A DNA stretch of 63,788 nucleotides, counting the filler, from Lenisia limosa (lineage: Eukaryota > Protista > Breviatea), in the NCBI GenBank assembly GCA_001655205.1. It is 16 parts of 16 records of this genome, joined end to end, with 100 filler letters (N's around TTAATTAATTAA, not from the genome) between each part and the next. Parts side by side here need not be neighbours in the genome. Positions count along the whole stretch, not along the records: positions 1 to 11,975 come from LPNZ01010531.1; positions 12,076 to 15,188 come from LPNZ01000077.1; positions 15,289 to 18,017 come from LPNZ01010156.1; positions 18,118 to 19,691 come from LPNZ01008837.1; positions 19,792 to 22,352 come from LPNZ01000934.1; positions 22,453 to 25,035 come from LPNZ01004281.1; positions 25,136 to 27,168 come from LPNZ01010591.1; positions 27,269 to 28,495 come from LPNZ01010781.1; 8 more parts are not named here. One strand, 5' to 3'. The notes beneath the pieces were generated by a model. That model did not search any database, was not told the origin of the DNA, and saw nothing but the letters and a program-made list of their open reading frames with translations. The first letter of the stretch is position 1, and every line of letters begins with the position of its first letter. The position numbers were made by a program, and so were the translations under genes. Positions 6,290-63,339 of the stretch are shown here, one piece after another.

Positions 6290-9200
6290 ACACCAGTTCA
6301 AGAATCTTATTTTTTCAGGTAGTGTTTGCAGACTTCTTTCGAGGACGGACGCCTGTGCTATTTACTAAGGAAACTCCTCAAGAAACAGAGGACGGTGACA
6401 GTGGTTAGCGAGGGAGGTGTGACTAGGGATTCATAATCATGCACATGGATCGTGATGGGTATGGGGGTTATAAAAGAAAATGACAAATCTTTCACCAATT
6501 ATGGATATGCCTAGTTTAATGCTCGTCACTTCGGATAGTTATGCAAACTGGATCATAATCATAACTTGTCAATCAACATCACTCTTTAGTCATTTTCACA
6601 CATGTTAACTTTCATTTCGACGCATCTTTGTTCATTGTCATACCACCAGTGGAAACGAGACAACATTCCCAATAACACTCTTAGAGTCATCATCTTCTGA
6701 AGAAGATGGGGAAGATGGAGAAAAGTCCAACCAAAGGCCGCCATATGATACATCACGAGAATTAAATATCAATTTGGACTGGGTTGTAACCGCAGCTATT
6801 CTCTACTACTATTCAGGAAAGTTCGTGGAGAAAGAGCCAGCACTCATTGTCTTATGCGCTGAGGTTATCATATAACACAGCATACGTTAACGATTTTCTG
6901 TAGCATACAAACATATATACTATTTGCTCTTCTCAACTCATTACGCTACAGGGCTTCTTGTGGGTTTCTCAANNNNNNNNNNNNNNNNNNNNNNNNNNNN
7001 NNNNNNNNNNNNNNNNNNNNNNNNNNNNNNNNNNNNNNNNNNNNNNNNNNNNNNNNNNNNNNNNNNNNNNNNNNNNNNNNNNNNNNNNNNNNNNNNNNNN
7101 NNNNNNNNNNNNNNNNNNNNNNNNNNNNNNNNNNNNNNNNNNNNNNNNNNNNNNNNNNNNNNNNNNNNNNNNNNNNNNNNNNNNNNNNNNNNNNNNNNNN
7201 NNNNNNNNNNNNNNNNNNNNNAGCCTGACGCGCCAATGTTAATTACTGAAAAACCAGCGGAACAGTCGAAAGGCGCTTTGTCATCATTGTCGAAACTGTT
7301 CGGGTATGTGTGGCAAGAGCTATATGTCGGGTTCATACTACTGTCATGTTGGAATATTGATGAGCCTCACAATGCTTGATAAATACTATAATATTATCAG
7401 TTACTGCTCTCAATCAGAGCAGACTTTTCTTTTGCTTCTTATTTTCAATCGTAACTTGGATCGATGACCCTTTAGCGTGACTCCTTCCTCCAAGAAACAA
7501 AAGGAGACGCCGTTTGACATTGAACCGTCACATCACAACAAACTGGGTGAGCTACTTCAAGAGGCAATGGTTTTTTTGACTTGCCTATGTTCACAAAAAG
7601 AATAAAATATTGATACTTATCGAAGTTTTATTGGAAAATTCAGAAGTGACCCTAGTATTTTTATTGCTTGTCATCACTTCAAAGCAAACTTGCTGGCAGT
7701 TTTCTGATACTGATCATTCATCATGCTCTAACTAACAATGAAGAAAACAGCGCTGATTCGGACCTCAAGCAAATGACCAATGACACCACTACTGCTGAGA
7801 GTAAAGTGGAAGGTAGGGGAAGTTTGGTTCTCGATAGTTGCCTAATTTTTGAGCTTCACTTTCGGTTTCAAAAGACATGTACAATACCAGTATTTTTCGA
7901 GGATTTATCCAGAATTCAGTCTTTTTTGGAACCGGAAGTGAAGCTCAACCTTATTTGTTCCAATCAAACATCTCTCCGTGAAACATCTTCCTTCGTTCCT
8001 CGCGATTGGTTAATTAATACCATATCATATGCTAAAAAGGAAGCATCCCGCTAAATAACTGATAATACTTGCCTTGGCTCAAATACTTCAGTGAAATCGG
8101 GTGACAAACCTGCGATGATCTACGGATCTGACCTTGAGCCCTCCAAGAAGGCCAATCTGAACAACTCATTCTGCAGATTCCAGGTGGGTGAAGATCCCTG
8201 ATTACTCTTTATTTAGCCTATATGATGTGTGAATGAAATGATAATATACTGCAATCATATATACTCACATAGTACATATGCGTATAATATACATATAATA
8301 ATACTACACGAACTTGAGTTTGAGAATATCAGCCATATTCTAGCTTTTTATCCTTTTCCAATAAACACTGACCGAATTAGGTGGAGGATGCTGAAGAATG
8401 GCAGAAACAACTCGAAGCTGCTCAGTTGAAGAACGGGGGCAATATAGCGAACTTTGTACCAGTGGAGCATTCTGCTGAATTCTTTTCAGGGTATGTTGCT
8501 TTTGCTGGTTTTGTTTCTCATTTTCCAATCCCTTCTTCACATACTTCACTATTTTCACTTTCTCAACCACCTTTTTTCACAAGTACCCGTGCTTTTTTTT
8601 CTTTTTTCTTTTGCTGTTTTTAACCCTTCGTTAATCTCGCAGAGTTTTTTTTTTTTTTTTTNNNNNNNNNNNNNNNNNNNNNNNNNNNNNNNNNNNNNNN
8701 NNNNNNNNNNNNNNNNNNNNNNNNNNNNNNNNNNNNNNNNNNNNNNNNNNNNNNNNNNNNNNNNNNNNNNNNNNNNNNNNNNNNNNNNNNNNNNNNNNNN
8801 NNNNNNNNNNNNNNNNNNNNNNNNNNNNNNNNNNATCGACCCTCATTTATTGGCAGCCAACAGAGTTGATTCTGGGTTTTTTTGTTTCAATTTTCCAATT
8901 TTACTCCCTGACCTTGTAGCACGCGAGTTGCCACAACAATCCTTCCTCTTGCCGGATACGTGGCACTAGCACTGTTTCTCATGAGGGGTGCAGGCCCGGG
9001 GGCCCAGGGATTCCTGAACAGCATTTCAAGTTCACGTGCGCAGCTTCAGGAAGCAAAAGGTGTGGGATGTCATTTTGAAGGACACGAATGTAGAACTAGC
9101 AATCAATTCAAGGAAAGACGATGTCTTATTTCCAGCATTTATGTCTTGAAGGATGTAATTACTTGTAGTTTTCCCAAAAGATAGGAGTTTATCCAACAAA

Positions 9201-11582
9201 GCTGTCTCGGATTTATTTTGTAGTTGTTTCATGGATTGTCTTTTTTGTTTTTTGTTTGGAGTTTCAGATTATTCGGTTCGTGATTAGTACCTTTACCCCA
9301 ATATTCNNNNNNNNNNNNNNNNNNNNNNNNNNNNNNNNNNNNNNNNNNNNNNNNNNNNNNNNNNNNNNNNNNNNNNNNNNNNNNNNNNNNNNNNNNNNNN
9401 NNNNNNNNNNNNNNNNNNNNNNNNNNNNNNNNNNNNNNNNNNNNNNNNNNNNNNNNNNNNNTTAGAAGTTGCGGAATTTATCCAGTTCCTTACGAATCCG
9501 GAGCACTTTGAGAAACTTGGGGCCAAGGTACCGAAGGTGGGAAGTGTTTCTAGCCAACAGAGCAGATTTCGGGCTTTTTTTTGTTCATAAATATTTTCCA
9601 TTTTACTCCCCCCCCCCCCCCCNNNNNNNNNNNNNNNNNNNNNNNNNNNNNNNNNNNNNNNNNNNNNNNNNNNNNNNNNNNNNNNNNNNNNNNNNNNNNN
9701 NNNNNNNNNNNNNNNNNNNNNNNNNNNNNNNNNNNNNNNNNNNNNNNNNNNNNNNNNNNNNNNNNNNNNNNNNNNNNNNNNNNCATACTCCAATATCCTT
9801 CTTTTCGCATGCTCGTGTGGATGGCTTTGTTTAAATACCAACTGTTTTTTTCTGTCATGTAATACCGTACTAATATCTGTATATCATCATCTTTCGCGTC
9901 AAGTTGTTTATAGTATTTCTCAGCTTCACCTTTCGCGTTAAGTTGTTTATAGTATTTCTCAGCTTCACTTGGTGTAGGGAGCACTTTTGGTGGGGCCTCC
10001 TGGAACAGGCAAAACTCTCCTGGCCAAAGCTGTAGGGGAGGGGGTGATCGAGCTCAACTGTGGACAAACTTGATTTGTGGTGGTGTGGGCTTGAAATGCT
10101 ATTCAACATTTGTCACATGCTTCTGCTTTGTTATTGCTGGGCTTCCCTTCAGTCCCAAAAGAATTTCTCGATAAATCTCCAATAAAAGTCGCTATTTTCC
10201 CGGTCTTTTTCGGACCGTAGTGAAGCCCTAGTTCAACATCACTCTTTTTAGCTTGCTTCTGAGTCGTCAATACCCTTTTTCTCTACAAGTGGATCGGAAT
10301 TTCTTGAAATGTTCGTGGGAGTTGGCCCTGCCAGAGTCAAGGATATGTTCAAACAGGTGGGCGAAAGAGGTGGGAGCATTCCTAACGGTGAGCTAATGGA
10401 ACTCGTCTACTCAGGGGATCCGAGCTATCTTTCACTCAAAAAAGGGGGGCATTCCTGATATTTTCTGGTATTTTTTCTGATGTCATGTCCTAATCATTCT
10501 AAGTTACCATATAAATCCCTATATTGGCTCACGATGTAGTCACGAGAGCATGCACCATGCATCCTGTTCANNNNNNNNNNNNNNNNNNNNNNNNNNNNNN
10601 NNNNNNNNNNNNNNNNNNNNNNNNNNNNNNNNNNNNNNNNNNNNNNNNNNNNNNNNNNNNNNNNNNNNNNNNNNNNNNNNNNNNNNNNNNNNNNNNNNNN
10701 NNNNNNNNNNNNNNNNNNNNNNNNNNNNNNNNNNNNNNNNNGTGAAATGAAATCAAATACAAGAATAGAAGCACGTTTTATAAATAGGAGGAAACAAGAG
10801 ATATATACATACATTATGAGCTAAGTTTTTTATTTTGATTCTTAACCATTACTGCCTATCATATACTATATATATAATATATCATATATACATGTATGTA
10901 CTATTATATATATGATGTATACTATACCCCGTTTTAATAAATTAATTGACTTGGCTAACATTAGACCTCTTTTGTACTACGCTGACATAACAGGAGGATT
11001 CCAAATCGGAAACGATGAAAGGGAAAATACTCTCAATCAACTGCTGGTGGAAATGGACGGTTTGCAGTGCCACTTCTTCAGGTTATTATTTCTATGATCC
11101 GAGTATGATCTCAATCTTCATCACTAGGGCTTCCCTACGCTCCAAAAAAGACCGTTATAATATCGATATTTATCGAGGATTTATCGAGAGATTCAGTCTT
11201 TTTTTGGAACCCACCACCATCTTCATCTTCTCCACCACCTTCCACATTCTTCACATCTTCATCGTCTTCACAATTTTCATCATCTCCTCCAGGGTTCTCT
11301 CCTCGCGATGGAGTTATTGTCCTAGCAAGGTGTGTCATTTCAACCATAAACCAGTAATATGGAGAAGTGTTTTGTAGAATTATTATTATTTATTTTTCTT
11401 TTCTAATAAAATAATTTAAATCTCTTTTCTAGCTAATGAATTCTAGTCTCAAACTGGTTTCATTGGTTTTGGTATTTCTTGTTTTTTTTTGAATTTATGA
11501 AGTATGACTTGTTCAGTACCAACCGTCCGGATATTCTGGATCCAGCCCTCCTCCGTCCCGGGAGATTTGACAGGCAAATCAA
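6290..11582 (+). CDS. AFG3: Mitochondrial m-AAA protease, FtsH family (AFG3L2/paraplegin-like), multi-exon, partial
   Basis: Exons: [30 protein letters not shown] (8381-8490); [24 protein letters not shown] (~9466-9536); [18 protein letters not shown], Walker A (9978-10031); [35 protein letters not shown] (from 10252); [53 protein letters not shown] motif (to 11582). Walker B and the protease domain fall in gaps or beyond the scaffold end; the 5' exons are tentative. Confidence 0.92.
7849..7948. mobile_element. hAT-like MITE (family A) in AFG3 intron
   Basis: Flanks CCTAATTT/CCTTATTT (7/8 TSD). Confidence 0.75.
8835..8919 (+). repeat. Family B repeat forming the 3' end of AFG3 intron 8491-8919
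   Basis: AGCCAACAGAGTTGATTCTGGGTTTTTTTGTTTCAATTTTCCAATTTTACTCCCTGACCTTGTAG|; splice phase consistent with donor at 8491. Confidence 0.85.
9245..9306 (+). repeat. Family F repeat
   Basis: TTTGGAGTTTCAGATTATTCGGTTCGTGATTAGTACCTTTAC..CAATATTC; also at 37885-38012(+), 25404-25440(-), 27670-27755(-), 37124-37215(-). Confidence 0.75.
9551..9622 (+). repeat. Family B repeat (3' half) inside AFG3 intron 9537-9977, not at its acceptor
   Basis: AGCCAACAGAGCAGATTTCGGGCTTTTTTTGTTCATAAATATTTTCCATTTTACTCCCCC. Confidence 0.8.
10138..10230. mobile_element. hAT-like MITE (family A) in AFG3 intron 10032-10251
   Basis: GGGCTTCCCTTCAG.. / ..GGACCGTAGTGAAGCCCTA; TSD not recognisable. Confidence 0.75.
11125..11210. 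mobile_element. hAT-like MITE (family A), right end truncated
   Basis: TAGGGCTTCCCTACGCTCCAAAAAAGACCG..ATCGATATTTATCGAG. Confidence 0.7.
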
Positions 11583-63224: not shown

Positions 63225-63339
63225 AACAGAGTTGTTTTTTTGTTTGTTGTTTCCAACTCCTGTGTGTTACTACTCAAAGAGTTGATTTTGGGCTTTTTGT
63301 GATTCCTAAATTTTCCGATTTACCCCCCCCCCCTACCAG
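63225..63339 (+). repeat. Family B repeat ending in C-run + AG
   Basis: ..AGAGTTGATTTTGGGCTTTTTGTG..AAATTTTCCGATTTACCCCCCCCCCCTACCAG. Confidence 0.8.

Follow-up and report, generated by a model that had tools for sequence, protein, structure and literature searches.

A short dispersed repeat on the sense strand near 3′ splice sites in introns of the breviate Lenisia limosa

In a 63,788-nt stretch of the genome of Lenisia limosa (assembly GCA_001655205.1; 16 parts of 16 records joined end to end, hereafter the window), many introns contain a short repeat, designated family B, that lies just upstream of an exon. Lenisia is a breviate, and breviates are relatives of animals and fungi. The position of the repeat raises the question of whether it creates introns or invades introns that already exist. 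An earlier note on this DNA proposed an introner-like origin or, alternatively, an element that inserts preferentially into the pyrimidine/acceptor region and escapes removal because it rebuilds that region. The evidence presented below fits the second proposal and not the first. In our judgement the balance tips slightly in favour of B being a non-autonomous (Penelope/Chlamys-like) retroelement, copied into C-rich tracts of introns that were already in place.

Family B is a short, non-coding, dispersed repeat of approximately 145 nt, found at 18 sites across 10 unrelated genes of the window (the sites are grouped profile matches plus four fragments picked by eye), which bears out the claim of about 20 copies of some 150 bp. 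The feature is real and robust. An iterated profile built from B copies gave 22 matches, 18 of them at E<1e-3, whereas the best match in the reversed window had E=0.6; these E-values are on the generous side, since those same copies went into the profile. With a single seed, the search returned 14 matches at E<1e-3, and a 25-nt core of B occurs six times, compared with none in 100 shuffles. The copies are 74-90% identical to the profile consensus. The window is interrupted by 59 N gaps, many of them adjoining C- or G-runs, and several B ends are hidden.

Several known classes of element could be compared with B. Its matches are single-stranded, whereas those of another repeat of the window, family A, are palindromic, and the aligned copies reveal no terminal complementarity of the kind expected of miniature inverted-repeat transposable elements (MITEs). 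Scans for tRNAs, Rfam families, poly-A signals and RNA polymerase III (Pol III) box motifs gave no match to B, and the reported lack of terminal inverted repeats (TIRs), poly-A tail and Pol III boxes was upheld; B has neither the tRNA/7SL/5S head nor the Pol III boxes and A-rich tail of a short interspersed nuclear element (SINE). A box-C-like word is located at its 5′ end, a conserved box D is absent, and no snoRNA of the C/D or H/ACA type was matched in Rfam. The predicted RNA fold is not stable (z from -0.97 to +1.5), and a stable hairpin was rejected. A Replitron, as far as the consulted part of PMC10288648 describes it, was also set aside, B being without a direct terminal repeat. No description of these repeats was found in a literature search at abstract level; the original genome paper and its supplements, which may mention them, lay outside this search.

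The anatomy of the copies is more informative. Their 3′ end is fixed and followed by a C-run, while the 5′ ends are staggered, giving lengths between about 145 and 25 nt: the window has 13 intact 3′ ends but some 10 different 5′ break points, and a defined full-length 5′ start is seen in several copies. Seven stacked pairs were found, with partial 3′ units upstream of fuller ones (the upstream unit is more decayed in four, similar in two and less decayed in one), as well as one head-to-tail pair; such partial tandems might also arise by serial insertion. At three tandem junctions the 3′ part of B is joined to GTGATG with 1-3 extra bases. A C4 run is located no more than 22 nt upstream of B in 6 of 16 copies, compared with a background of 4.4% (p=4e-5), and C-runs occur at both ends of several copies, although at the 3′ end tail and target are indistinguishable.

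Non-autonomous Penelope-like elements (PLEs) of the Chlamys type are characterized by a constant 3′ end, 5′ ends that are often truncated, partial tandems and a (C)n target. According to the part of PMC8557442 consulted, Chlamys elements are 5′-truncated, occur as partial tandems, insert at (C)n targets and have target site duplications (TSDs) that are often indiscernible, being lost in the repeat; de novo insertions, in the consulted part of 10.1101/2022.05.23.493040, have a median length of 128 bp, are all intronic and follow a (C)n target. The non-autonomous Chlamys PLEs of Chlamydomonas (e.g. Chlamys-N4, MRC1), as portrayed in these excerpts, resemble B in their short 5′-truncated copies, partial tandems, (C)n target, intronic location, often indiscernible TSD and lack of a hammerhead. 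Unlike them, B has no demonstrated autonomous partner and ends in a branch-like motif, and its strict sense orientation and acceptor position do not appear in the Chlamys PLE descriptions consulted.

The acceptor position itself is consistent. A YAG lies 6-20 nt downstream, across a pyrimidine tract, for all ten B 3′ ends readable in the window, whereas the same test applied to 400 other TTAC sites found a YAG in 127 and a YAG with a tract in only 38; the C tail of B adds to the tract that is counted. C-runs often precede acceptors in this genome even without B (e.g. 41497, −). The claim that at least 11 copies end close to an exon-opening AG is supported by the ten readable ends, but several of the junctions originally listed had to be corrected, as described below.

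One junction is supported at the level of the transcript. A CCT4 exon is a 100% match to P0001, a Trinity-derived protein carrying the name of the breviate Lenisia limosa; P0001 threads exactly through 12 CCT4 introns. These include the B-ended intron 35986-36296 (+; 311 nt, phase 0), comprising a unique 5′ part of 117 nt between the donor and the B array, a decayed partial unit (36103-36175) and a B copy (36176-36290), whose terminal A is at -10 relative to the acceptor. This confirms that the intron is spliced; it is the only transcript-confirmed B intron. The AFG3, CCT4 and 16.7-kb junctions had all been regarded as fixed, but among them only that of CCT4 has this confirmation: in the search of transcript-derived proteins, the AFG3 exon recovered P0121 only, a read-through open reading frame (ORF) call, and the exons at 38915 and 61449 gave no matches.

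The remaining copies near acceptors vary in completeness. In AFG3, a copy at 8835-8908 (+) has a readable 3′ half, continues at full length into an N gap according to P0121, and precedes the acceptor AG at 8918-8919 (host branch-like motif at -9, A of B at -17). The region 16483-16751 (+) consists of two decayed partial units and a full-length B (16595-16736) with a C tail and AG at 16750-16751, the A of B (-17) being the only A of the tract. A 3′ fragment at 23995-24054 (+) is located before an acceptor of the YeeE (Sulf_transp) gene (A at -22), and a near full-length copy ends with its acceptor at 27322-27464 (+; host-like motifs at -13 and -8, A of B at -17). The 5′-truncated copy at 38030-38138 (+), which follows a family-D copy, has, at the junction listed at 38138, a NAGNAG acceptor whose first AG ends at 38135 (A at -8). 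The copy at 38767-38914 (+) is interrupted by an N gap and has its acceptor at 38914 (A at -12), and a partial unit plus B at 61757-61916 (−) lie in an intron of 217 nt (61757-61973; A at -17). An internally deleted, decayed copy (51458-51535, −) is found upstream of the acceptor at 51412.

Two listed acceptors are putative: that of the internally deleted copy at 60640-60753 (−; A at -21) opens a two-codon, putative terminal exon only, and that of the 5′-truncated copy at 63221-63339 (+; C tail, AG, A at -18) opens an exon which enters a gap. The copy reported as mid-intron at 9551 (9544-9622, +; 5′-truncated, C15 tail) is not simply so, since only 7 nt separate its start from the donor of AFG3 intron 9537-9977 and it then enters a gap. 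Gaps also limit the copies at 11687-11753 (+; AFG3 intron, 5′-truncated, C13 tail), 28408-28495 (+; internal deletion, 3′ end within the gap), 37458-37494 (+; 25-nt 3′ fragment, C12 tail) and 60290-60344 (+; RRM-gene intron, with the 5′ end of a full-length copy readable), as well as the head-to-tail pair of units at 49745-49897 (−), the second of which runs into a gap.

All 18 sites, in 10 genes, lie on the sense strand of the host gene, as the earlier note had maintained. The host strand was fixed by homology for six sites in four genes (AFG3, YeeE, CCT4, RRM), weakly for one site (ACPS, E=0.026), and by hand-drawn in-frame splice chains for 11 sites in five genes; the junction beside 49745-49897 was read from the nucleotide sequence. 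In the chain from 61.7 to 61.5 kb the frame continues across the intron 61704-61567 (−), yet no AG is present near its 3′ end, which may reflect a GG acceptor or an assembly error; the gene model is weakened, since it requires an acceptor without AG. A PEMT match at 61478-61651 was discarded as probably in the wrong frame.

Does B create the introns in which it resides? Introners, in the part of PMC9860276 consulted, are defined by similarity at both intron ends, and secondary insertions into pre-existing introns are excluded. The similarity fails to reach the donor in any of the 12 B-containing introns, whose donor regions are unrelated to B and to one another; B is therefore not an introner as so defined. 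Judged from these sequences, it supplies no donor and fills part of each intron. The B introns are 217-479 nt long, compared with a native median of 61.5 nt. Within the portions of PMC9860276 and PMC11282704 consulted, introners do share with B a dispersed intron family of similar sequences of <200 nt and, in one instance, an AG derived from a flanking duplication; B differs in that its similarity reaches the 3′ boundary only, with no donor, TIR or stable fold. It is very improbable that a true introner made these introns and that their 5′ parts later diverged or expanded. The start of B 7 nt from the donor at 9537 would suit such a history, as would the alignment of CCT4 with its orthologues, in which none of 11 orthologous loci has an intron where the B intron lies (aa 292, phase 0); this sample is intron-poor and shares only 3 of 12 Lenisia positions, and both the twelve unrelated donor regions and the unstable fold argue against it. 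Shared 3′ ends of introns are, as a caution, no evidence of intron gain.

The terminal TTTTAC of B had been placed where native introns have their branch site. In a native set of 29 introns from CCT4, AFG3 and the NADP-isocitrate dehydrogenase (IDH) gene, a branch-like motif, set by eye, has its A at -7 to -16 in 19, with all nearest motifs at -8 to -14; the background is 17% of 2678 YAGs. The A of B falls within the native -8 to -14 range in 3 of 10 copies of the window and in 4 of 6 copies from a second assembly, G001 (7 of 16 in total), and at -17 to -22 in the others. At 8919 and 27464 a host motif is nearer than the A of B, which is the sole candidate at 16751 and 61757, while in four G001 copies a C-tract and AG follow even though the terminal motif is absent. 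The placement holds for part of the copies: B could plausibly serve as the branch site in about half of them, but is not required.

In another reading, B would be a mobilised intron RNA (a lariat or processed circle) that undergoes reverse transcription, its own C-run/AG end serving for priming at acceptors. The core starts with GTGATG and ends with a branch motif, a C-run and AG; no promoter motif was seen in B; the 19-nt duplication described below starts at CAG; and the three tandem junctions (3′ part joined to GT, with 1-3 extra bases) resemble trimmed, adenylated circles as depicted in the consulted part of PMC11146597. On the other hand, GTGATG lacks the +5 G present in 21 of 26 native donors, full-length copies reach about 10 nt upstream of that GT, and partial tandems are also routine for PLEs. 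We regard this origin as distinctly unlikely. Equally unlikely is its extended form, in which B would be a splice-site-regenerating element derived from intron RNA, acceptor-primed, with its own branch site and a duplicated AG, which would be harmless in exons or at junctions and would generate a new or recursive intron where the target is AG|GT; if so, the gap after the copy at 9544 is predicted to hide such an AG|GT-type site.

A probable insertion at an exon boundary is seen at 50921-51118 (−), where a 19-nt stretch is duplicated (51100-51118 and 50921-50939, 18/19 identical) around a 5′-truncated B, a gap and a C tail. The duplicated stretch consists of the acceptor plus 16 nt of exon, abuts the truncated 5′ end of B (0 of 5000 null draws), and its downstream AG keeps the frame. 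Here B appears to have been inserted into an exon and rescued by duplication of the acceptor. The junction listed at 50939 is adjusted: the 3′ end of B is inside the gap and the acceptor G is at 50937. In the same gene, a 60-nt duplication of an exon end plus donor was observed (51164-51224 and 51264-51324). A further duplication, inferred from four residues of P0121, was judged weak because the start of B may itself explain part of it. Comparable acceptor insertions are described for SINEs (canine merle, PMC7349775; NF1 Alu, PMC3219598): in the parts of these reports consulted, the element lies at the intron/exon boundary, the acceptor is duplicated and the tail acts as pyrimidine tract. Those were isolated events, for the most part harmful, and involved poly-A/T tails and RNA-derived heads, whereas in B the pattern recurs, the tail is a C-run and a tRNA head is absent.

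Another route to such junctions is spread by DNA repair, in which a broken end in a C/G run invades the C-run of another intron and copies the sequence upstream of it. Under this model, too, copies would share their polarity and be anchored at the 3′ end, and duplications would be rare; a short microhomology is present at the 51099 junction. It would, however, draw on many unrelated donor introns, whereas a single family was found, with a defined 5′ start and the range of identity to consensus given above. We consider this route distinctly unlikely.

For a Penelope/Chlamys-like retroelement, the following course of events may be envisaged. A reverse transcriptase encoded elsewhere would prime on the G-rich strand of a C-tract, which would fix the polarity; copying would often stop early, giving 5′ truncation, and the new copy, retaining the C-run, could be hit again at the same site. 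C-runs being common just before the acceptor AG in this genome, copies would collect there. They would be tolerated because the AG is kept or duplicated and because the terminal TTTAC of B, or a host motif, remains as branch site. Selection would eliminate most antisense copies at G-rich donors.

Several observations weigh against this scheme. Neither a reverse transcriptase nor a GIY-YIG partner was detected in the 392 ORFs scanned, a subset comprising 289 of the window and 103 of G001. Copies with an inverted 5′ part, a typical feature of PLEs, were not noticed, and the loss of 5′ sequence could be decay after insertion. Of 19 copies, just one has a clear flanking duplication (permutation tests on the mean and on the count gave p=0.039 and 0.054, respectively; p=0.38 for the window alone), and a general TSD around B is unsupported. 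Finally, G-runs (>=5) are as common as C-runs on the sense strands of five homology-fixed gene stretches (8 vs 9); targeting of C-runs alone thus cannot explain 18/18 sense copies, and an extra step of selection has to be assumed.

Might selection suffice? B would then insert without target preference, and only sense, acceptor-proximal copies would be left. The sense strand of B contains 42% T, two other repeats (families C and D) also lean towards sense in the copies oriented by eye, and the balance of G- and C-runs calls for selection in any case. Yet copies of families A and C persist elsewhere in introns, while B is confined, at all its readable ends, to the vicinity of an AG, and C-runs flank both ends of several copies. 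Selection alone is an unlikely explanation. As a control for the target logic, an insertion containing family D (27556-27909, −; ends approximate) lies antisense at a G-rich donor; its anatomy is that of B, in that it is T-rich, has a C end and is flanked by a 39-nt duplication (32/39 identical), which favours the retroelement scheme.

The 25-nt core was also used to scan other genomes. Genome contigs gave one match, in G001, a bacterial metagenome-assembled genome, and none was obtained in metagenome contigs or viral contigs. Contigs C39, C43, C46, C60, C67, C69 and C72 of G001 contain introns, look eukaryotic and carry the same repeat families; these intron-bearing contigs are likely eukaryotic contamination. 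The seven contigs (37 kb) were chosen for their repeats, and their sole match to the window is a 54-nt repeat. The B profile gave 11 matches in them at E<0.05. Of the seven copies ending in TAC, six are followed by a YAG 9-19 nt on and then an open frame (the exception is in L092), the host strand being taken from open frames together with a galactokinase match that is weak (E=0.029).

Other features of these contigs concern B or mobile elements. In L091, the 14 nt that open the exon after a B copy (5490-5503) resemble the 5′ end of B itself, and an insertion of ~2.3 kb with long TIRs (L091:1419-3755) splits a B copy, which is therefore older than the insertion. DDE_1 and Tc1-type transposase matches are located at L092:234-1109 (−), L097:701-1563 and L097:2332-2670; the ORF L093:1184-1957 (−) is transposase-like by eye, with no such Pfam match.

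The window contains further repeats. Family A, a palindromic, MITE-like repeat of ~95 nt with TIRs, often TA-flanked, occupies about 20 sites (e.g. 3783-3875 and 57796-57891). Family C is an intronic repeat of ~118 nt with 19 matches (e.g. 499-608, −, and 62508-62625, +), also present in tandems; by eye most copies are sense, whereas that in IDH (30671-30746) is antisense. T-rich family D is found at 9239-9306, 25403-25502, 27670-27753, 37125-37227 and 37902-38012, and at L097:376-418; several copies end near acceptors as B does, and one is the antisense copy with the 39-nt duplication. The IDH gene (29825-32049) has 15 short introns, three of them with AAG acceptors, and no B. A 31-nt tandem array and trinucleotide-type microsatellite arrays lie at 15428-15655 and 26183-26560.

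If B is indeed a retroelement copied into C-rich tracts, it would represent a mobile element that uses 3′ splice sites as a safe niche and rewrites the ends of introns genome-wide, lengthening introns and moving branch points. The known range of (C)n-targeted Penelope-like activity would then widen to include the breviates.

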